IMG/VR virus record: IMGVR_UViG_2531839454_000026
Length of the DNA: 26,722 bases
Source: a virus
Taxonomy: Duplodnaviria > Heunggongvirae > Uroviricota > Caudoviricetes
Direction: 5' to 3' (one strand)
Under the pieces are notes generated by a model. That model was not told the origin of the DNA. It saw only the letters and a list, made by a program, of their open reading frames with translations, and ran no database searches. Positions 1-16,694 of the stretch are shown piece after piece. The translations under genes and the position numbers were made by a program. Within the stretch, counting starts at the first letter, position 1. The number at the start of each line of letters is the position of its first letter.

Positions 1-171
1 CCGAAGGATGCCACCCTGACGGCGCTGGCGGAGCTTGCTACATCAGCAGATAAACTCCCATATTTTACAGGGGCAGATCGTGCCGCGTTAACCGCGTTGA
101 CAAGTGTTGGACGTGCCATTCTTGGTAAAACCAGCACTCAGGGAGTTCTTGATTACCTTGGTTTGGGAGAA
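1..171. repeat. Left arm of perfect inverted repeat (reverse complement of 2011..2181); truncated by window edge
   Basis: Base-by-base comparison: window 1..171 is the exact reverse complement of 2011..2181; identity stops exactly at 171/2011. Confidence 0.95.
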
Positions 172-519
172 GCGGCGAAAAGGGATGTGGGCACAGGAGA
201 AAATCAGATACCGGATATGTCAGCCTGGAAAAGAGATCCGAGTTCTAATCGCTGGAGAAAATTGCCTGATGGAACCATCATTCAAATGGGAATATCAGCA
301 TCAGGGCCATTAGGCTCACCTGTAAATATCACCCTGCCGATATCTTTCAGCAATACCAATTATTGTGTTGTTGCATCGTACGATAATGCACGGTCAGGTG
401 TGTCAACAATGGTTAGTTTTGCAGCGTTACCTGTTTCACCATCGCAATTTTCCCTGATGTCATCTGTGACTGAGCAAGGAGTAAATCCTTTTGCTTACTG
501 GATTGCTTTTGGAGATTGA
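1..519 (+). CDS. Alternative tail-fibre C-terminal segment (Hv'), 5'-partial at window edge, silent in the current orientation
   Basis: Frame open from nt 1; first 57 codons (PKDATLTALAELATSADKLPYFTGADRAALTALTSVGRAILGKTSTQGVLDYLGLGE) identical to an internal stretch of H, then a different C-terminus; stop TGA 517..519. Confidence 0.6.
   Translation, partial: PKDATLTALAELATSADKLPYFTGADRAALTALTSVGRAILGKTSTQGVLDYLGLGEAAKRDVGTGENQIPDMSAWKRDPSSNRWRKLPDGTIIQMGISASGPLGSPVNITLPISFSNTNYCVVASYDNARSGVSTMVSFAALPVSPSQFSLMSSVTEQGVNPFAYWIAFGD
146..171. other. hix/gix-like 26-bp candidate serine-invertase crossover site (left copy)
   Basis: Reverse complement of the 2011..2036 site; lies exactly at the inner end of the inverted repeat. 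Confidence 0.4.
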
Positions 520-522
520 TAA

Positions 523-942
523 ATGGACAGATACTTCTATTCACAAAAAGAAAATGGTTTTTTTACCGATTTAAATAAAGCACCTTCAGATGCTGTTGAG
601 ATAACCACGGATGAATGGCTGTTACTACTGGATGGTCAGGATAATGGCATGAAAATAGTCAGCAATCAGGAGGGATATCCGGTTTTGACAGAGCAACCAC
701 CTTTATCAAAAGAAAACCTTATTGCATTGGCGGATTTGAAAAAAAGAAAACTTATTAATGAAGCCAACGAGCACATGAACAGCAGACAATGGCCAGGTAA
801 AGCGGCGATTGGTCGCCTGAAAGGTGAGGAACTGGCGCAATATAATTTGTGGCTGGATTATCTGGACGCACTGGAACTGGTCGATACTTCCGGTGCGCCA
901 GATATTGAATGGCCTACGCCTCCGGCAGTTCAGGCCAGATGA
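523..942 (+). CDS. Alternative tail fibre assembly chaperone (Tfa-like, G')
   Basis: 139-aa ORF 3 nt after Hv' stop, RBS GGAGA upstream; C-terminal WLDYLDALELVDTSGAPDIEWP resembles the Tfa C-terminus of G (LDYIDAVTATDTSTAPDVIWP); 3' end overlaps G convergently (914..942). Confidence 0.7.
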   Translation: MDRYFYSQKENGFFTDLNKAPSDAVEITTDEWLLLLDGQDNGMKIVSNQEGYPVLTEQPPLSKENLIALADLKKRKLINEANEHMNSRQWPGKAAIGRLKGEELAQYNLWLDYLDALELVDTSGAPDIEWPTPPAVQAR

Positions 943-1519
943 CGTCCGGCGCGGTGCTGGTATCTGTTGCCGTCACCGCGTCAATGTAATCCAGCACAGC
1001 GTTAAGTCGGGTGTTTTCTGTCTGCATCAGCTTCCGCCCGGCCTGCAATTTCAGTTGAATCAGACTAATGGAAGCCATTGCAGTATCAATCAGTGACTGA
1101 CGCTGTGCTTCTGCCGCGCCTACTGCGGCGCTATGCTGTGCCTCAGTATCTGTCACCCATTTCTCACCATCCCATTCATCGTATGGCGTTAACGGGGCGA
1201 TAGTGGTTGTATTTTCAGGATAATCACCCGGAGCTGTGATTTCTTTCGATTCTCCTGTTTCGGTGCTATAGATGATTTCACCACGATGGTCTGGCACATA
1301 TTCCCATGAGTTAAAATCTGCAGAACGGCAGATTGCATAACCAGCTTTATGTGTAACTGGTGCATCTAAACAAGAACATGCCGGGATACCGACGCCGACA
1401 GCGAGATATTCAGTTGATGTAGAAATATATTCCCGCGTTTCACCATCATAATTATAAACGGTAATATCTCCCGCTTTTATGGCAATGAGTTCGCTATTTA
1501 ATACAGCTTTATTCATCAT
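914..1519 (-). CDS. G: Tail fibre assembly protein G (Tfa family)
   Basis: 201-aa ORF directly downstream of H with ATGA-type overlap; Tfa-like conserved C-terminus. Confidence 0.85.
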   Translation of the reverse strand: MMNKAVLNSELIAIKAGDITVYNYDGETREYISTSTEYLAVGVGIPACSCLDAPVTHKAGYAICRSADFNSWEYVPDHRGEIIYSTETGESKEITAPGDYPENTTTIAPLTPYDEWDGEKWVTDTEAQHSAAVGAAEAQRQSLIDTAMASISLIQLKLQAGRKLMQTENTRLNAVLDYIDAVTATDTSTAPDVIWPELPEA

Positions 1520-3156
1520 GCGGCCCTTACAATATAATTAAAAGCGATGTTACGAGGACGAGTTTCTGTACCTACATTTTCACTAATTTCACCATAACGT
1601 TTAACACTACGAGAGCTAATAGCTCGTAGTGAGGAAGGCACCTTAAGACCGGGTTCGTCCGTTTTAACTATTCCCCCGTCACCGTATGTAGCCAGTATTC
1701 CTGGGTTTACTCCTTCCCGTGCACTTCCTGCGGCGAGTCCGTCCCCTGTCCATAATTCCATATAGTGTGCATGGTCCAAAATTGTGTGTGGCTGCCAATT
1801 AAGCAAAGCGCGACCAGTATCAATCCCGCGACCGTCATCCCAGCCACGAATAAATTCACCGCGTAAATCAGGCAATTTATTGGTCGGGTAAGCCTTTGCC
1901 AGTTCCGGGTATTCTTCAACAGAAAAAGCCGCACCATTGCATTTCAGCCAGCCTGTTGGCGGAGTGGCTGAAGGCCACGGAACAGGCACCCCAACCGGTA
2001 ATGCAGAGCCTTCTCCCAAACCAAGGTAATCAAGAACTCCCTGAGTGCTGGTTTTACCAAGAATGGCACGTCCAACACTTGTCAACGCGGTTAACGCGGC
2101 ACGATCTGCCCCTGTAAAATATGGGAGTTTATCTGCTGATGTAGCAAGCTCCGCCAGCGCCGTCAGGGTGGCATCCTTCGGTTGCTTACCCGCAAGCGCG
2201 TTAGTCATGGTGGTCGCAAAATTCGGGTCATTGCCCAGCGCCGCAGCCAGTTCGTTCAGCGTGTTCAGTGCATCAGGTGACGAATCTACAAGTGCGGCAA
2301 TCGCGGCCATAACGAAAGCCGTGCTTGCGATCTGGGTACTATTAGTCCCCTGTGGCGCTGTTGGTGTTGTTGGCGTTCCGGTCAGTGCCGGGCTGTTTAA
2401 TGGTGCTTTCTTGTTCGTTTCATCCATTACCGCCTTAACAGCTTTTGGTGTCGCTGCCAGTGTTTCAGACGTGCTGTTCGTGGCGCTACTGAGCTGAACA
2501 ATCCCTTTTTGTGTAGTGGTGGCGTTCTGGGCGGTATATTTCTCGTTAGCCAGGTCATATGCAGCCTTAACCGCTTTCGGTGTTGCGGCCAGTGTTTCTG
2601 ATTCACTGTTAATTGCACTGCTTAACTGAGTAAAACCTTTTACGGTCAGCGAGGCGTCCGGGTGACGTCGTGACTGTTCGTGCTCTGATATTTTATCATC
2701 CACATATTTGCGGGTTGCCAGAACCACAGACGGGTCAATTTTCAGCGTGATGGCTTCGGTGTTCGTGACAACCAGAATCATGCGGATAGTTTGGGTGCGT
2801 CCACTGCCTTCCTGCAACTGCGGTTTGTACGTTTCCGGGCAGTTTGCCACCGCAATGAGTACACCTTCATCATCATAAAGACCAATCTCACGGATCCAGA
2901 ATCCTCCCTCGTTTTCAGGGATGATTTGCTCCGCAATAATCTGGCTCTGATTGTTAGGGTCAACACTCAGAAGATTCAGCGGTGCAATGCGTTTCTGGTT
3001 AATCAGTTTTGTTTGTGCAGGGTCTGGTGTTGGTAACACACCATTTGCATCACCAACGGCCATTTGCGTCAGATTCAGCTTACTGCCGAGCATCGTCGCG
3101 TTAGCCAGTCGTGCCGCGCCCTGATTAGTCAGAATGGCGTAGTATTTCACTGTCAT
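1516..3156 (-). CDS. H: Tail fibre protein H (constant N-terminal part + variable C-terminal part)
   Basis: 546 aa; N-terminus MTVKYYAILTNQGAARLA...MAVGDANG typical of P2 H / side tail fibres; internal 44-aa tandem repeats; position between I and G. Confidence 0.9.
   Translation of the reverse strand: MTVKYYAILTNQGAARLANATMLGSKLNLTQMAVGDANGVLPTPDPAQTKLINQKRIAPLNLLSVDPNNQSQIIAEQIIPENEGGFWIREIGLYDDEGVLIAVANCPETYKPQLQEGSGRTQTIRMILVVTNTEAITLKIDPSVVLATRKYVDDKISEHEQSRRHPDASLTVKGFTQLSSAINSESETLAATPKAVKAAYDLANEKYTAQNATTTQKGIVQLSSATNSTSETLAATPKAVKAVMDETNKKAPLNSPALTGTPTTPTAPQGTNSTQIASTAFVMAAIAALVDSSPDALNTLNELAAALGNDPNFATTMTNALAGKQPKDATLTALAELATSADKLPYFTGADRAALTALTSVGRAILGKTSTQGVLDYLGLGEGSALPVGVPVPWPSATPPTGWLKCNGAAFSVEEYPELAKAYPTNKLPDLRGEFIRGWDDGRGIDTGRALLNWQPHTILDHAHYMELWTGDGLAAGSAREGVNPGILATYGDGGIVKTDEPGLKVPSSLRAISSRSVKRYGEISENVGTETRPRNIAFNYIVRAA
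2011..2036. other. hix/gix-like 26-bp candidate serine-invertase crossover site (right copy)
   Basis: TTCTCCCAAACC-AA-GGTAATCAAGAA: two imperfectly symmetric 12-bp half-sites around a 2-bp core, central AAACCAAGGT as in hix/gix sites (hixL recalled from memory as TTCTTGAAAACCAAGGTTTTTGATAA); located exactly where the H and Hv' coding sequences diverge. Confidence 0.45.
2011..2181. repeat. Right arm of perfect inverted repeat (inside H coding sequence)
   Basis: Exact reverse complement of 1..171. Confidence 0.95.
2432..2633. repeat. Intragenic imperfect tandem repeat in H (two ~70-nt copies 132 nt apart)
   Basis: DNA copies at about 2432..2501 and 2564..2633; protein motif QLSSA(I/T)NS(E/T)SETLAATPKAVKA occurs twice. 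Confidence 0.7.
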
Positions 3157-3761
3157 GCGTTTACTCTCAGATTATCAATTAAATGAATGGCTGGGGCAGG
3201 GAAATAATCCCCTTCGACAATAATGGACTCCGGGGTGTAGGGATAAACCGTCAGGGCATCGCCGTGATAGCATCCCGTACCAACGAAAATCTTTCCGTTC
3301 ACACTCAGGCTGATCGCCAGCCCCGTCAGATGGCGACTTACTGGTTTTGCATCCGCAATAAGGCGCTCAAGTTCCTGATACATTTCATCGGTGATGCCCT
3401 GATCAAGTACTCCGACAACAATGCGAAATGTTCCCGGCTCCTCGTTGAGTTGCCACCACTCCTTTACTTCAATCAGGTAGCCGAGAGGCTCCACGGCTCT
3501 TCGCAGTGCGCTGATGGTCCCTTTGTGTCGGTGTATCAGCCATGCATCACGAATCACCTGTCGCTTTGTCTCTTCCGGCCAGTTGCGATCCCAGCGGTCA
3601 ACGGAAAACGCCCAGGCGAGATAAGGCAGCAGATGCACCGGGCAGGTGTCCGGCGACCACAGCGTGTTGAGGTCTACCGGAATGTCTGTAATGCGTGTTC
3701 CGACGGCTTCGGCACAACGCATGAAATTGCTGGCTGATGGTGGTAACAACGAATTACTCAT
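3153..3761 (-). CDS. I: Baseplate assembly protein I
   Basis: Position between J and H; ATG at 3761 preceded by RBS AAGGTGG (ORF track gives GTG at 3794); stop overlaps H start (ATGA). Confidence 0.75.
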   Translation of the reverse strand: MSNSLLPPSASNFMRCAEAVGTRITDIPVDLNTLWSPDTCPVHLLPYLAWAFSVDRWDRNWPEETKRQVIRDAWLIHRHKGTISALRRAVEPLGYLIEVKEWWQLNEEPGTFRIVVGVLDQGITDEMYQELERLIADAKPVSRHLTGLAISLSVNGKIFVGTGCYHGDALTVYPYTPESIIVEGDYFPAPAIHLIDNLRVNA

Positions 3762-4650
3762 TGCGTCCACCTTCGCTGATGGTGAATGACTCACAGCGCG
3801 CCGCCTGTATGTCGCTGATGGCCATATTCTGTGTGGGTTCGATTATCTCCACGCGTTGCACACCGTGCACATGCAGTGCGGCAGCAATGGCGGACAACGC
3901 CACGTCCTGACCGATAAGCCCCTGCTCAGCCAGCCACTTCCTGAACGACGATTCAGCCGCGGCCAGAATAGGTTCGGATTCCGGGCCGGGGTAAAAGTAC
4001 AGTTTTGCATTCAGCCGCCATGTCACGATTCTGGCGCTCTGTACGGTCAGGCGGTCGGCCACCGGGCGGGTATCCTCTGCATTCAGAACGGCGCGAACGG
4101 TATTAAGCAACGCCTCCGTTGCTGTGCCGTCGCCTTCAGTGGACAGGATGGAAACCGTCACACAGGCCGGAGACGGGCTGATGGCCCGCGCATCACGCAC
4201 CAGACCGCTGGCGCTGCGTGCAAAATACTCGTATGCACCTGCCGGGCCAGCAACACTCAGGCCGTCATACGCCCGTTGCGCCCGCAATCTCAGCGAGGTG
4301 TCGCTCTCCATCACCGCGTCGGTGGTATCCGTTGCCGGAGTGATAACCAGGCGCTTTGTGTTCATATTGCCCGCGAGGTTGTCCAGGTTTGTCCCTGAAC
4401 CGTGGCTTAACATGCAGGCGCGTGCGCCCTCGTTAACCCGCTGGCGTAACAGCATTTCACGAAAAGACATGGTTTGAGCGATAACGTTCAGGGGTTCCGA
4501 TTCCAGCTCCAGCGCGGCGGAGACGGCTTCACGCTGTTCGGCAGGATAGGACGCAATCATCATGGCCTTTGTGTCAGCCAGAATTGCCTCAAAATCAGGC
4601 TCCGCGATGATGGCGGGTTCCGGTAACTGGGAAAGGTCAACAGCAGGCAT
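3754..4650 (-). CDS. J: Baseplate assembly protein J
   Basis: 298 aa, N-terminus MPAVDLSQLPEP... like P2 gpJ; synteny W-J-I. Confidence 0.9.
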   Translation of the reverse strand: MPAVDLSQLPEPAIIAEPDFEAILADTKAMMIASYPAEQREAVSAALELESEPLNVIAQTMSFREMLLRQRVNEGARACMLSHGSGTNLDNLAGNMNTKRLVITPATDTTDAVMESDTSLRLRAQRAYDGLSVAGPAGAYEYFARSASGLVRDARAISPSPACVTVSILSTEGDGTATEALLNTVRAVLNAEDTRPVADRLTVQSARIVTWRLNAKLYFYPGPESEPILAAAESSFRKWLAEQGLIGQDVALSAIAAALHVHGVQRVEIIEPTQNMAISDIQAARCESFTISEGGRNE

Positions 4651-4653
4651 GAT

Positions 4654-5004
4654 TTACTCTCTCAGCGTGATGGTTAATTCAACATTCTGCATGGTCTGCA
4701 TGACAGTGCCCGACAGCGTCACCCCGGCGCGGCCTCCTGCCTTCCAGACAACGTCGATGGCGTCCAGGGCAATGCGGGGTTCCCATCGTGTCAGCGCAAT
4801 CACGGCAGCACTCATGCATTGCAGACGCGTGGTGTTATTCATGGGTTCGTCAATCAAATCAGGCACAAGGCTGCCATATTCCCGTCGCATAACCCGGCTG
4901 GCCAGCGGGGTGGTCAGGATGTCCCTGACTGACTGTTTCAGGTGCTCCATATCGTTCAGGTTTCCCGTTCCGTCCGGGTTCATTCCTGTGTAGCGGGTTG
5001 TCAC
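4654..5004 (-). CDS. W: Baseplate assembly protein W (gp25-like)
   Basis: 116 aa, size and position as P2 gpW. Confidence 0.9.
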   Translation of the reverse strand: MTTRYTGMNPDGTGNLNDMEHLKQSVRDILTTPLASRVMRREYGSLVPDLIDEPMNNTTRLQCMSAAVIALTRWEPRIALDAIDVVWKAGGRAGVTLSGTVMQTMQNVELTITLRE

Positions 5005-5582
5005 TGCGGGCCTCCTGTCGAATCGCTGCCACCTTTAACGCCACCGTGTTTATGCGTATGCACTGTGATGCCGTTTGAGGTGAAATCGCCGCCGCTGTGC
5101 GTGATATTGCCGCTCATCTTTCCCCCTTTTGTGACGTCAAGCGTCGCCGTTCTCAGAAGGTTTGTGCATTCCACGACGGGCGTGTCCAGTGTCACGCTGA
5201 CGGATGCCTGTAAAGTGGCCGTTTTCATGCCGCTGGCGCTCAGTGCGCCTGCGTCCGCGTCGTAGCGGAACACCGCGCCGTCCGGCGCGCTGATCACGAT
5301 TTCTTTCAGGCTTTTGCCGGGTGCCGGATTGGCATCACTCCACAGGCTGCCAATTATCATGGCGGTTTCCGGGTTGCCGCCAATGCAGGCAATTACCACC
5401 TGTTCGTCCACTGATGGCGGCAGCCACACATTGAAGGCTCCCGCGCGCGTGGTGTTCCAGCGCAACCAGCCTGTTTCCAGTTCGCCGCTACGAACGCGCA
5501 CGCGCCAGGACTTCTCATCAACTTCAGAGATGATCCCGGTGCGGATGATATTGCTCAGCAGTCGCATGAGTTCTGCGCTCAC
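5001..5582 (-). CDS. V: Baseplate spike / assembly protein V
   Basis: 193 aa; motifs IRTGIISEVDE, VTLDTP...CTNLL, GNITHSGG...SNGITVHTHKH match the P2 gpV pattern as I recall it. Confidence 0.9.
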   Translation of the reverse strand: MSAELMRLLSNIIRTGIISEVDEKSWRVRVRSGELETGWLRWNTTRAGAFNVWLPPSVDEQVVIACIGGNPETAMIIGSLWSDANPAPGKSLKEIVISAPDGAVFRYDADAGALSASGMKTATLQASVSVTLDTPVVECTNLLRTATLDVTKGGKMSGNITHSGGDFTSNGITVHTHKHGGVKGGSDSTGGPQ

Positions 5583-6223
5583 CGTACAGCCTCCGCAATC
5601 CGGCCCAGCACCGTGTTATAAATCAGGCGTTCATCTGCCTGGCTGATACCCAGCAGCTCACGTACCGGGTAATCGGTGAAAATGCCCGGCATAACCTGAT
5701 CGCGCTCACCGAACTGATGAACGCGTGCAATACGTGCGGCCACGCCGCTGTAACCCACCGTCACACCGGAAGCATCTGCACGGGCTTTCAGGTAGCGGGC
5801 GGTGCGCAGTTTTACGAACATGGGGACGCGCTTTGTGCTGTCCTGGTTGATGCGCCGGGTGCGTATTTCCAGAAAACGGTCGATGTCATCCCGGTAAAAC
5901 GTGCGGATATTGTTTTTATCCTCATCCCCCCCGGTAATGGTTCGCCCGTATTTCCCCGTGTCGTGATGCCAGTTTTTCAGCGTGCGTGCTTCGTTATTCC
6001 AGATAAAGCGAATGCGTTCCTGTATCCGGGTTACGCGGCGTCTGCGTGGTGTCCACGCGGTCCCGTCCGGCGCTTTCTGTGACCGGATACGCGCCTGCTG
6101 GGCGCGGCGTAAATCCTGTGCCAGCTTTCTGGCGATGTTATTGATGGCCTGCTGATTCAGGCTGTCGCGGATGGCCTCAAAGGTTTCATCCACGCGGGTG
6201 AATGCCTTATCCATCGCTTTCAC
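5579..6223 (-). CDS. S: Tail completion / virion morphogenesis protein S (start uncertain)
   Basis: Position between R and V; longer than the ~150 aa I recall for P2 S; start could be the second Met. Confidence 0.65.
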   Translation of the reverse strand: MKAMDKAFTRVDETFEAIRDSLNQQAINNIARKLAQDLRRAQQARIRSQKAPDGTAWTPRRRRVTRIQERIRFIWNNEARTLKNWHHDTGKYGRTITGGDEDKNNIRTFYRDDIDRFLEIRTRRINQDSTKRVPMFVKLRTARYLKARADASGVTVGYSGVAARIARVHQFGERDQVMPGIFTDYPVRELLGISQADERLIYNTVLGRIAEAVR

Positions 6224-6674
6224 CCCACGTCACATCCTGGAATACATGCGACCAGTCGCCTTCGGAAGATGGCAGGCGGGGTTTTGGCTCCGGCAGGTGT
6301 TCTGCCTGCGGCGTGCCCTGACTGCTGCGCGTGATGCGAACGCGTTCCCGCAGAGGGAGCGTAAACAGGAGATCGGCGCTGTCATCGTCATTGATAACGG
6401 CGGAGAATTTGATGTCCTGATTACGCTCCGGATTGAGCAACAACTGTGGCTGATTTTCTGATAACCACGCCAGTAGCGGCAGCGTGAGGTCGTCCAGCTC
6501 CCCGGCGTAATCCATGACAAACATCACCATCTGATAGCGGTAAACAAACGAGGGCGTTTCTCCGGTCGTTTCAATGTTGCCGCTCTCCACGAAAATGGTG
6601 AATTTTTCCGGGTTGGCCTGACACCATCGGCATGAACGGGTCATGGCTTCACGCAGGGAATCAGTTTTCAGCAT
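6207..6674 (-). CDS. R: Tail completion protein R
   Basis: 155 aa, same size and position as P2 gpR; N-terminus MLKTDSLREAM... Confidence 0.75.
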   Translation of the reverse strand: MLKTDSLREAMTRSCRWCQANPEKFTIFVESGNIETTGETPSFVYRYQMVMFVMDYAGELDDLTLPLLAWLSENQPQLLLNPERNQDIKFSAVINDDDSADLLFTLPLRERVRITRSSQGTPQAEHLPEPKPRLPSSEGDWSHVFQDVTWGESDG

Positions 6675-14973: not shown

Positions 14974-16173
14974 ATGGCTTTTACAAAAATCAGAATCGAT
15001 AATCTGTTTTGCTTTGAAAATAGCATCCTTGACTTAAGCTTCTCCAGACCCCCGATCAACAGCTCACTGGAAGGTGAGTACATTGATGGATTTGAAAAGT
15101 TCTACTTCAAAAAGGTTTGCATCGTTTCTGGTGCTAATGCATCTGGTAAAACATCTCTTGGTCGCGTGATGCTTTCTGTGTTGCGTTTTCTCAGTAGTGG
15201 TGTTTTCAATCCAGAACCGTTAAAAATTACTGACAAAAGAAAACCTGCATATATAGAGGTTGACTTTTTCCAGAGTCATTTAAAATGTTTGTTTAGGGCA
15301 GGTGTCTGGCTTAGGGCTATGGATGAGTCTGTTGTTGTAGAAAAAATTGCAATGGCATCTGTTGATTTAAGAAGCTCGGAATCATGCGCAAAGACGACCA
15401 AAAGACTGGATGCTGTGTGGGATGCGCAAAAGTTTGAATTAAATGGTCAAAATAGATTTTTTTCAACCGAAAACGCTAACTCAAAAGAATTTTCCCAATA
15501 TTTAGAGGGTTTGGACTTTGTTCTTGGTTGGCATTTCATTCTATCTGAAAACCAAGAGAACACGGATAAAATATCACGAATTAAGAAGAATGTGCTTAAT
15601 AGCATATTAAAAACCTTTGACAATACTGTTAAATCTGTCTCAGGACTCACTCTTAAAGATGATGAGGGAAAGGAGGATTTGCAGGGTTATTCAGTAGTCT
15701 TCAATAATGGAGATAGAGTTATTATTGATATGGAAGGTGATATAACAAATAAAGATAGACTGTCTCGTGGTACTTATGAGGCAGTAAAAATATCCCATCT
15801 CCTGTCAGGAGTGCTTGAAGATAAAATAGAAGAGCGAGAGTTCAATTTCCCTTGCAGTGGGGTGTACTTTTTGGATGAGAAAATGGCCTTCACTCATACT
15901 GAATTAGAAAAAATGATGGTCACGCTGATTATATCTAAGCTTTGCAGATATGGTCAATTTATATACACCACACATAATTATGATATCTTGAGCTTAGATC
16001 TGCCTACGCATTCATATACTTTTACTAAAAAAGTAGATGGTGTAACCACTTTTGTTGAAGCTACCACACATCATAAAAAGAATGATCGCAATCTTTTAAA
16101 TAAAGTAAAAAATGACTGTTTTGCAACAATACCTGACGTTTCATTAATCGAAGAGATGCTATTTGAGGATTGA
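14974..16173 (+). CDS. ABC-type (OLD/AriA/AbiLi-like) ATPase, first gene of accessory cassette
   Basis: 399 aa; SMC/RecF-like N-terminus IRIDNLFCFEN; Walker A GANASGKTS; Walker B VYFLDE; H-loop-like TTHNYD; large insertion between Walker A and B; AT-rich codon usage. Confidence 0.8.
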   Translation: MAFTKIRIDNLFCFENSILDLSFSRPPINSSLEGEYIDGFEKFYFKKVCIVSGANASGKTSLGRVMLSVLRFLSSGVFNPEPLKITDKRKPAYIEVDFFQSHLKCLFRAGVWLRAMDESVVVEKIAMASVDLRSSESCAKTTKRLDAVWDAQKFELNGQNRFFSTENANSKEFSQYLEGLDFVLGWHFILSENQENTDKISRIKKNVLNSILKTFDNTVKSVSGLTLKDDEGKEDLQGYSVVFNNGDRVIIDMEGDITNKDRLSRGTYEAVKISHLLSGVLEDKIEEREFNFPCSGVYFLDEKMAFTHTELEKMMVTLIISKLCRYGQFIYTTHNYDILSLDLPTHSYTFTKKVDGVTTFVEATTHHKKNDRNLLNKVKNDCFATIPDVSLIEEMLFED

Positions 16174-16694
16174 TTATGGCAGTTAAGAAATTTGCTATTA
16201 TTCTTGTTGAGGGAGATACGGAAAAAGCATTGTTTCAGGATTTCAAAACATTGCTAGGCTATCCTATTAAGAAAATAGTAATTGCTAATTTATGGAATGT
16301 TAATATAAATAAATACATGCCAGCATTAACCGAAAATAGCGAAATCATAGTGGTTTTTGATACGGATAGGATTGAGAATCTTGATAGATTTAAGAATAAT
16401 CTCAATCTATTAAAGGCGAAAAAACACACAATCCACCTATTTCAACAAACAAGCAATTTTGAGGATGAGCTTGCCAATGCTTGTGGTGTAAGTAATAGAA
16501 AGTTGTATTCTTGTTTTTGCCCAAAGATCATCTCTGCAGATAACTTCAAGAATGAATTCATTGCGCTGCGCAACAGGATGATGAAATTAGATGGACTTGG
16601 ACTAAATAAAACGTTGCTTTGGAGTAGAGGGATTATCCCCCAATTGAGAGATTATAATTTTCATGTTTCCTCTCATGATGATTATTTTTTATAA
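16170..16694 (+). CDS. Small TOPRIM-like putative nuclease (RloB/DUF4276-like), second gene of accessory cassette
   Basis: 174 aa; start overlaps ATPase stop (ATGA); ILVEGDTE (conserved Glu) and VVFDTDR (DxD) about 50 residues apart = TOPRIM metal-binding signature. Confidence 0.7.
   Translation: MIMAVKKFAIILVEGDTEKALFQDFKTLLGYPIKKIVIANLWNVNINKYMPALTENSEIIVVFDTDRIENLDRFKNNLNLLKAKKHTIHLFQQTSNFEDELANACGVSNRKLYSCFCPKIISADNFKNEFIALRNRMMKLDGLGLNKTLLWSRGIIPQLRDYNFHVSSHDDYFL

Follow-up and report, generated by a model that had tools for sequence, protein, structure and literature searches.

The stretch of DNA analysed here (the window, 26,722 nt) corresponds to bases 2-26723 of the NCBI draft contig AQCY01000111.1 (62,264 bp; assembly GCA_000354335.2). 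It carries a P2-like (Peduoviridae) gene set for structure, lysis, replication and integration, with the P2-type domains Tail_P2_I, Baseplate_J, GPW_gp25, Phage_base_V, Phage_tail_S, P2_Phage_GpR, Phage_tail_X, Phage_GPL, Phage_term_smal, Phage_cap_P2, Phage_GPA and Phage_Cox, plus an integrase. At the left end of the window lies a tail-fibre locus (Table 1). The constant part of the fibre gene H (2025-3156) consists of Phage_tail_fib and Phage_fiber_2 repeats, and its variable tip, Hv (1519-2010), is a Collar domain (Pfam). A second tip, Hv', has the receptor-binding domain Gp53-like_C (Pfam PF21882, E = 1.5e−13), and its reading frame is continuous from base 1 with a copy of constant-H sequence. 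The domain assignments confirm the two convergent pairs of fibre C-terminus and Tfa chaperone described in the earlier, sequence-only reading of this DNA, with Hv-G on the minus strand and Hv'-G' on the plus strand. Because the two tips belong to unrelated Pfam families, they are likely to recognize different receptors.

Table 1. Features at the left end of the window (coordinates in window positions).
Feature	Position	Strand	Remarks
Second copy of the last 157 nt of constant H, up to the outer half-site	1..157	+	Reverse complement of 2025-2181
Constant-H tail (1-171) fused to Hv' (172-516), stop codon 517-519	1..519	+	Open frame, alternative fibre C-terminus
Left 26-bp crossover site, as assembled	146..171	+	TTCTTGATTACC-TT-GGTTTGGGAGAA, central TT 158-159
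Invertible segment, ~1.86 kb, between the central dinucleotides	160..2022		Hv'-G' on plus, G-Hv on minus
G', tail-fibre assembly chaperone cognate to Hv', 139 aa	523..942	+	Pfam Caudo_TAP, E = 3.4e−25
G, tail-fibre assembly chaperone cognate to Hv, 200/201 aa, TfaE-like	914..1519	-	Pfam Caudo_TAP, E = 2.4e−30
Tail-fibre gene H, assembled (A) orientation, 546 aa	1516..3156	-	Pfam; annotated as phage tail protein in L001
Right 26-bp crossover site, inside H	2011..2036	+	TTCTCCCAAACC-AA-GGTAATCAAGAA, central AA 2023-2024

An inverted-repeat search of the window found two arms (1-172 and 2010-2181) of 172 nt that are 100% complementary and are spaced 1,837 nt apart; the perfect inverted repeat noticed earlier at 1..171 is thus real and one base longer. 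Since the search of the first 6 kb of the window found no other repeat longer than 21 nt, the length of this one is far beyond chance. In the source contig the repeat measures 173 nt, with contig base 1 (A) pairing with window position 2182 (T). It reaches the first base of AQCY01000111.1 and is therefore truncated by the physical end of the contig. The repeat had been described as cut by the window edge; it is indeed cut, but by the contig end and not merely by the edge of the window. AQCY01000111.1 ends 158 nt past the left crossover site, without an invertase gene, and in the other direction it extends without interruption from the segment across the entire prophage and takes in another 35 kb of DNA. 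Two other draft contigs (L022 and L023) also break in or around the segment.

Within the arms lie two crossover sites in inverted orientation, which have a 12-2-12 architecture (an imperfect dyad) and the same central dinucleotide (TT/AA). The 26-bp sequence at 2011..2036 that had been proposed as such a site is present, and its reverse complement occupies 146-171. The motif TTGGTTTGGGAGAA, with up to 2 mismatches allowed, occurs at only 2 places in the 26.7-kb window, against a chance expectation of 0.2. A multi-site shufflon, of the kind found in one P2-like prophage of EPEC, is ruled out by the presence of only two sites in the window. When compared with sites extracted from the K-12, P1 and Mu records, the inner half-site together with the central TT (14 nt) is identical to both pix sites of e14. 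As assembled, the left site has an outer half-site of the constant-H type. The native left site on the invertase side, as found in orientation A in the near-identical prophage L001, is TTTTCTTAAACG-TT-GGTTTGGGAGAA.

Comparison with close relatives locates the ends of the segment within these sites. Finished relatives are overall ~99.8% identical to the window, and L001 is 99.9% identical across 9 kb. In L001 and L002, the match to the window does not begin until about position 155-158, and an invertase gene lies further left instead. In L001, divergence begins at the base beside the central TT (window position 157, C versus G), which fits an exchange at the crossover site; the match of L003 ends at position 2024, in the central AA. 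The breakpoints fall in a 15-nt shared core that starts at the central TT. In the finished relatives the repeat amounts to no more than a match of 18 nt (exact over 15 nt) within the 26-bp sites, and the two outer half-sites differ. The proposal that the element is natively bounded by a perfect 171-bp repeat does not survive this comparison. Because the identity with finished relatives starts exactly at the central TT, window positions 1-157, as judged from these alignments, belong to the flipped-orientation junction, on its constant-H side, and are not the native left flank. The element itself does not include the long perfect repeat, which is a flipped-state junction caught at the end of a draft contig.

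The invertase gene found in L001 and L002 encodes a 199-aa serine recombinase and lies 57 nt from the site. The 199-aa recombinase of L001 and L003 has the domains Resolvase (PF00239, E = 9e−52) and HTH_7 (PF02796, E = 1e−12) and the catalytic motif YVRVS, matches the Mu Gin structures 3UJ3 and 4M6F (E ~1e−90) and is 81.5% identical to PinE, 74.7% to Cin and 71.5% to Gin. Its exact sequence is present in very many assemblies. In the relatives the 5' end of the gene adjoins the site, and the gene reads away from the segment. Nucleotides 19-90 of the gene are 81-82% identical to cin and gin, compared with a gene-wide identity of 68% to gin, and synonymous-codon identity is 0.52-0.64 in codons 7-30 versus 0.30-0.38 elsewhere (P = 0.01-0.05, uncorrected). 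This pattern is compatible with, and may faintly hint at, a candidate Fis-dependent enhancer in the 5' end of the invertase gene. The expectation that an invertase gene lies just left of the window is borne out in near-identical prophages, where it adjoins the segment, but not in the window's own contig, because only one further base is available there. The invertase of the window's strain would have to lie on another contig of the draft assembly.

Among long contigs and finished genomes, the segment occurs in both orientations. Orientation A is found in L001, L002, L010, L013, L017 and L018-21, and orientation B in L003, L007, L011 and L016; the end of the window's own contig holds the B junction. 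H accordingly exists in two forms, of 546 aa (Collar tip, followed by G) and of 497 aa (Gp53-like_C tip, followed by G'), both of which are intact in finished genomes. The 497-aa form, in which constant H is fused to Hv', is intact in L007, L011 and L016, and flipped-state finished genomes thereby substantiate the prediction that inversion joins Hv' in frame to constant H. CE0021a (orientation A) and 504838 (orientation B) have identical recombinase and Tfa protein accessions, and the latter has an intact 497-aa H. In a census of junctions in finished genomes (junction covered at least 80%; Hc, constant H; Rc, recombinase side), we counted 135 genomes with Hc-Hv, 90 with Rc-Hv', 2 with Hc-Hv' and 946 with Rc-Hv. 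A 61-nt pattern representing the flipped junction had no match in the genome-contig and metagenome-contig collections scanned. With both orientations present in finished genomes and breakpoints at the 26-bp sites, the proposed Gin/Pin-type invertible tail-fibre switch is upheld.

An identical flipped junction exists in finished genomes as well as in three independent viral contigs, and this bears on whether the terminal repeat could be a pure artefact of sequencing or assembly (a hairpin, a chimeric read or a fold-back mis-join). Its position at the very end of a contig in a 2013-era draft assembly would suit such an origin. However, a break precisely at the central dinucleotide of a recombination site is not what random fold-backs would give, and the 15-nt common core is too short to mislead k-mer assemblers. 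We give an artefactual origin next to no credence. A random hairpin or fold-back in particular is ruled out, given that the breakpoint is the crossover dinucleotide and that the junction is known from finished genomes.

The assembled sequence, taken at face value, shows a perfect repeat that is open-ended at the contig end, as would be expected of a true chromosomal inverted duplication in which a second, convergent H (full or partial) replaces the invertase side. Such an arrangement might have arisen by an invertase-mediated rearrangement or by fold-back at a replication fork, and the prophage would then have two complete fibre genes with different tips and would no longer switch. However, the chimeric arrangement of the window, in which positions 1-157 are joined to the segment in the presence of an A-type right junction, occurs in none of the 5,426 finished E. 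coli genomes, and each of the 16 long or finished loci has exactly one site of the constant-H type. The chimeric arrangement was seen only in the window's contig and in L004, in both cases at a contig end; the arms measure 173 and 70 nt, respectively. The breakpoint lies exactly at the recombination site, as it does in the flipped junction. Long perfect palindromes of this kind are unstable. We therefore regard a chromosomal duplication as very improbable, and the second complete convergent fibre gene that the sequence-only reading had offered as its alternative finds no counterpart among the finished genomes or in L004, where the extra copy likewise runs into a contig end.

Taking these observations together, we propose, with a probability of about 85%, that window positions 146-2036 are an invertible host-range module of the Pin/Gin/Cin type in a P2-like E. 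coli prophage and that the terminal repeat is its flipped junction. The small serine recombinase that near-identical prophages encode beside the segment would attach to the inverted pair of 26-bp sites, cleave each at its central TT/AA and turn the intervening DNA through 180 degrees, a catalytic mechanism suggested by homology to Gin. In the assembled state, constant H is fused to the Collar-type Hv and would be co-transcribed with the chaperone G; after inversion, constant H is in frame with the Gp53-like Hv', followed by the chaperone G'. Flipped virions would gain another receptor specificity, and we infer that the switch changes the host range. If the sequenced culture held both orientations, the assembler would have left the segment along flipped-state reads, so that 157-158 nt of constant H would have been joined to the segment, on its Hv' side, where the contig ends. 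Judging from this one contig end, the presence of both orientations in the sequenced culture is the most likely cause of the terminal repeat.

The flipped junction could instead have come from a second prophage in which Hv'-G' is fused to an identical constant H, with the shared sequence collapsed in assembly and the contig ended where the two copies diverge. Parts of the cassettes are indeed multi-copy in E. coli, where several elements per genome share them (at a median of 2 and up to 11 places), and the exact G' protein is found beside Gp53-like_C tips in P2-like, Mu-like and e14-like elements. L005 has a different fibre, of 627 aa, with the same constant-H tail on an Hv'-like tip, and other draft contigs break within the segment as well. 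Because L022 and L023 break around the segment and parts of the cassettes are multi-copy, a repeat-collapse origin of the contig end is possible. However, the contig is uninterrupted through the prophage and the 35 kb beyond, and most of the prophage is therefore single-copy, while the second copy would have to be identical over Hv' and at least 158 nt of constant H. For prophages of this kind, switching at high frequency within clonal cultures has been documented, which makes a mixture of orientations the simpler explanation. We consider a second element unlikely; were it present, the switch would still be real and the contig end would be silent on ongoing inversion.

With an invertible module as the preferred reading, the observation has a practical side. 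When a contig ends inside a long, perfect inverted repeat beside a 26-bp invertase site, the repeat denotes an invertible segment assembled from a mixed population or a collapsed second copy. In annotation, such a terminal repeat should not be taken for a native repeat, nor should it be propagated as a duplication. The contig end also hints, cheaply and without recourse to reads, that the sequenced strain may have had both orientations (or a second copy).

Among known systems, the C segment of P1 with its invertase Cin shares with the locus described here the central TT, 10 of the 12 positions of the inner half-site (GGTTTAAGAGAA) and an invertase of 74.7% identity, and the annotated enhancer of cin has an equivalent (nt 19-90) that is identical at 58 of 72 positions. 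In contrast, cin is transcribed towards its segment, cixL overlaps the 3' end of cin, the segment measures 4.2 kb and the prophage is a plasmid. The G segment of Mu follows the same logic, with Sc fused to Sv or Sv' and accompanied by U or U'. Its invertase is likewise directed away from the segment, its sites are 26 bp in length with the 12-2-12 arrangement, and Gin (71.5% identity) aligns end to end through its solved structures. Mu differs in the gix site (TTATCCAAAACC-TC-GGTTTACAGGAA), which has a central TC instead of TT and 16 of 26 positions in common, in its 34-bp perfect repeat and 3-kb segment, and in belonging to another phage family.

The P segment of e14 in E. coli K-12, with its invertase PinE (Plasterk and van de Putte 1985, as cited in PMC4272514), resembles the locus in several respects. 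TT-GGTTTGGGAGAA is identical, the outer half-site on the invertase side agrees at 11 of 12 positions, and the invertase (81.5% identical) is encoded by a gene whose 5' end is beside the site and which runs away from the segment. The e14 segment also holds two convergent cassettes of fibre tip and Tfa, and its tfaP/tfaE/stfE region is 88.5% identical to window positions 775-1568 and 93% identical to positions 1807-2027 at the nucleotide level. However, e14 is a defective lambdoid remnant, whereas the prophage described here is complete and P2-like. The constant part in e14 is StfP/YcfK, as opposed to a P2 H-type fibre (Phage_tail_fib and Phage_fiber_2); its invertase has 184 aa, compared with 199 aa and a longer C-terminal tail in the relatives of the window; and its own tip is unlike the Gp53-like_C tip of Hv'.

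In overall organization the prophage is like P2 (H, G, Z/fun), with baseplate, tail, lysis, capsid, terminase, GpA, Cox and integrase genes in P2 order. In canonical P2, H and G form a fixed pair and no invertase is known. Fels-2 carries the Fin invertase. Here, unlike in P2, the position after G accommodates an invertase and a second cassette; it is a hotspot at which invertases are common in P2-like phages (preprint 10.1101/2024.10.15.618418). In the P2-like prophages of EPEC E2348/69, orientations coexist in culture, and the variants were found by read mapping (Goldberg 2014, PMC4272514). Phi1, Phi2 and Phi4 of EC958 undergo tail-fibre inversions, with both orientations present in culture (Forde 2014, PMC4134206), and the PacBio assembly of that strain yielded spurious contigs from the alternative allele and artefactual duplications (PMC4134206). 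The prophages of EC958 and EPEC share with the locus described here a fibre gene whose 5' part, with Phage_fiber_2 repeats, is stable and whose 3' part, with a Collar domain, is invertible, together with a chaperone downstream, a mirror-image alternative allele, an adjoining invertase and 26-bp crossover sites, and the sites of EC958 Phi2 (…ATTACCTT GGTTTAGGAGAA / …TAAACGTT GGTTTGGGGGAA) are closely like those found here. The differences are the strain, the combination of cassettes and the form taken by the alternative state: here it is an inverted duplication at the end of a short-read draft contig, not a separate contig of the alternative allele. The type of switch is already documented, and biologically it is nothing new: Pin/Gin-type tail-fibre switches in P2-like E. 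coli prophages have been described in the literature, and hundreds of finished genomes contain them, some 99.8% identical to the window.

The P2-like prophage carries a tail-fiber switch of a known kind, near-identical copies of which are already annotated in RefSeq. According to a 2024 preprint (10.1101/2024.10.15.618418), the P2 hotspot after G, the position of the invertase in such prophages, often carries invertases. The sequence-only reading, that an invertible segment exchanges the tip of the tail-fiber gene H, was right at its core: both orientations occur in finished genomes, the crossover sites are of the pix type, and relatives carry the invertase. Two convergent cassettes lie between the repeat arms, and domain matches identified them, as had been proposed, as pairs of tip and chaperone, Hv with G on the minus strand and Hv' with G' on the plus strand. 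Beyond the two 26-bp sites, the 14-nt core TTGGTTTGGGAGAA has no further occurrence in the window, even at two mismatches.

Features of the prophage in window coordinates
Feature	Position	Strand	Matches and remarks
Open frame from base 1	1-519	+	Gp53-like_C
Left 26-bp site	146-171		sequence match; reverse complement of 2011-2036
Chaperone G', 139 aa	523-942	+	Caudo_TAP
Chaperone G, 200/201 aa	914-1519	-	Caudo_TAP
H, 546 aa	1516-3156	-	Phage_tail_fib, Phage_fiber_2 repeats, Collar; C-terminus inside arms
Right 26-bp site	2011-2036		sequence match; TTCTCCCAAACC-AA-GGTAATCAAGAA
Two-gene cargo	14974-16694	+	
ParM-type protein, 319 aa	17141-18100	-	StbA_N, E = 2e-82; ParM_N, E = 1e-68
GpA replication protein, 950 aa	18177-21029		
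SPFH/Band 7 protein, 276 aa	22059-22889	-	E = 8e-31
Tyrosine integrase, 340 aa	25700-26722	+	

The flipped junction is present in three IMG/VR contigs. A relative's locus (L003) holds the complete flipped state, with the constant part of H (Hc) fused to Hv' and followed by G', and with G and Hv on the opposite strand; after Hv come the site TTCTCCCAAACC-AA-CGTTTAAGAAAA, a 199-aa recombinase and gpU. L003 matches the window only as far as 2024, the central AA. The finished genome of E. coli 504838 has the same prophage as E. coli CE0021a but flipped, and the recombinase and both chaperones have identical RefSeq protein accessions in the two. H of 504838 is intact (497 aa), which bears out the prediction that inversion fuses Hv' in frame to constant H. 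Exact look-up of G' retrieved P2-like prophages of either state, with an H of 546 aa (L010, L013 and L017) or 497 aa (L011 and L016), as well as Mu-like and e14-like elements with invertases of 184 aa. In a junction census of 5,426 finished E. coli genomes (four 400-nt queries, matches counted at 80% or more of the query covered), Hc-Hv was found in 135 genomes, recombinase-Hv' in 90, Hc-Hv' in two and recombinase-Hv in 946; both Hc-Hv' genomes are the top two of the recombinase-Hv list.

An invertase had been expected just left of the window, where the record has no sequence; that expectation arises from a contig end. The 172-aa product of window 1-519 matched a single contig in an exact-sequence look-up, AQCY01000111.1 (62,264 bp; NCBI draft GCA_000354335.2), whose positions 1-520 are the partial gene. 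The first 10,519 bases compared are all identical to the window, at an offset of one. The left edge of the window is a true contig end. The right edge coincides exactly with the stop codon of the integrase gene, while the source contig runs ~35 kb further; this edge resembles a provirus limit that was trimmed to the end of a gene.

The perfect 171-bp inverted repeat of the sequence-only reading is real as a pair of arms, which a repeat search placed at 1-172 and 2010-2181 with 100% complementarity (the second-longest inverted repeat in the window's first 6 kb is only 21 nt). Base 1 (A) of AQCY01000111.1 also pairs with window 2182 (T), and the repeat is therefore 173 nt long and cut by the draft contig's physical end. 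As the boundary of the element it does not stand, being a consequence of that end: in native form the inverted repeat spans 18 nt with a single mismatch, and 15 nt of it are exact. Over 9 kb, CE0021a shows 99.9% identity to the window, starting only at ~155-158. Left of its segment come a 57-nt spacer and the gene of a 199-aa "recombinase family protein", which points away from the segment; beyond that gene are gpU, tape-measure protein, tube and sheath. LR-46 has the same layout. The window leaves CE0021a at 157, the base adjoining the central TT, and window 1-157 is thus a stretch of constant H that meets the Hv' end of the segment at the crossover site. The reading frame is unbroken across this junction, which is exactly what inversion would create. 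We infer that the window's own strain has the invertase as well. In CE0021a (locus positions 1-5307) and L003 (2770-8343), the sheath-tube-E-tape measure-U block and the H operon are convergent, and the invertase gene lies between the segment and gpU; we take the direction of the block to be inverted relative to the canonical P2 map. L012 (6163-8420) is also a P2-like prophage and encodes a 197-aa invertase; its sheath and tube genes are co-directional with H.

In the window, constant H stands at either end of the segment. This is most simply explained by a sequenced culture that contained both orientations, in which case the assembler would exit the segment along flipped-state reads until its path ran back into itself. 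Of 18 loci with the constant-H-type 26-bp site, just two carry a second copy of it, the window's contig and L004, and in each this extra copy adjoins the contig end (the arms measure 173 nt in the former and 70 nt in the latter). Goldberg et al. (2014, PMC4272514), who sequenced whole genomes of clonal cultures, observed that the two orientations coexist in e14 and in P2-like prophages of EPEC, and tail-fiber inversions in EC958 prophages give spurious contigs and artefactual duplications (Forde et al. 2014, PMC4134206). The main rival, a second, already flipped copy elsewhere in the genome, is improbable. A real palindromic duplication in the chromosome is more doubtful still, because the window's chimeric arrangement occurs in none of the 5,426 finished genomes; no record's coverage of window 1-3200 goes past 158. 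In 245 of 1,003 collection blocks with exact G', no contig carrying it reaches 2 kb, roughly the length of the invertible segment, which suggests that draft assemblies very often leave the segment as an isolated unitig.

Gin, Hin and Pin act as serine invertase dimers with a Fis-bound enhancer and cleave at the central dinucleotide. By homology, invertase dimers on both sites would synapse with a Fis-bound enhancer, and both duplexes would be cut at the central dinucleotide via phosphoserine links, rotated and religated. The sequences show directly that constant H has two alternatives: fusion to the Collar tip, accompanied by G, or to the Gp53-like tip, accompanied by G'. The parked cassette lacks N-terminal fiber domains. 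The unrelated tip folds and the classical systems suggest that the switch alters receptor specificity. The invertase-side flank gives the parked cassette an in-frame ATG-ATG leader (MMPVSRNLCIFLNVGLGE...; CE0021a locus 5961-6362, L003 1568-2116), so that annotation pipelines call the silent tip a protein of 133 or 182 aa or, in 504838, a frameshifted pseudogene.

The cargo sits where P2 has its old/tin hotspot, with the portal gene on one side and the replication genes on the other. It encodes a 399-aa AAA_15 ATPase (top PADLOC match AbiLi, E = 1e-27) and a 174-aa OLD-like TOPRIM protein with weak matches to AbiLii and GajA, and looks like an AbiL-like anti-phage pair. This integrated prophage also encodes a ParM-type actin-like segregation protein, whose gene adjoins that of an unusually long GpA, and an SPFH/Band 7 protein among the early genes.

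The relatives' recombinase, which contains Resolvase and HTH_7 domains, can be aligned over its full length with the solved structures of Mu Gin (3UJ3 and 4M6F, E ~1e-90). It keeps the YVRVS active-site motif, and its identity is 81.5% with e14 PinE, 74.7% with P1 Cin and 71.5% with Mu Gin. Nucleotides 19-90 of its gene, which correspond to the annotated enhancer within P1 cin, are 81-82% identical to cin and gin (68% gene-wide versus gin), with synonymous codons identical at 0.52-0.64 versus 0.30-0.38 elsewhere (P = 0.01-0.05, uncorrected); this is compatible with, and no proof of, a conserved enhancer. Written as outer half, center and inner half, the sites are TTCTTGATTACC-TT-GGTTTGGGAGAA on the H side and TTTTCTTAAACG-TT-GGTTTGGGAGAA on the invertase side, the latter being the native left site of CE0021a. 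Among comparison sites from the K-12, P1 and Mu records, Mu gix (TTATCCAAAACC-TC-GGTTTACAGGAA) differs in its TC center, whereas P1 cixL and cixR (CAATCCTAAACC-TT-GGTTTAAGAGAA and TTATCCAATACC-TT-GGTTTAAGAGAA) share the center but have a different inner half. Both e14 pix sites (CTCTCGAAAACC-TT-GGTTTGGGAGAA and TTTTCATAAACG-TT-GGTTTGGGAGAA) have the same center and inner half as both sites here, and the system is therefore of the pix type.
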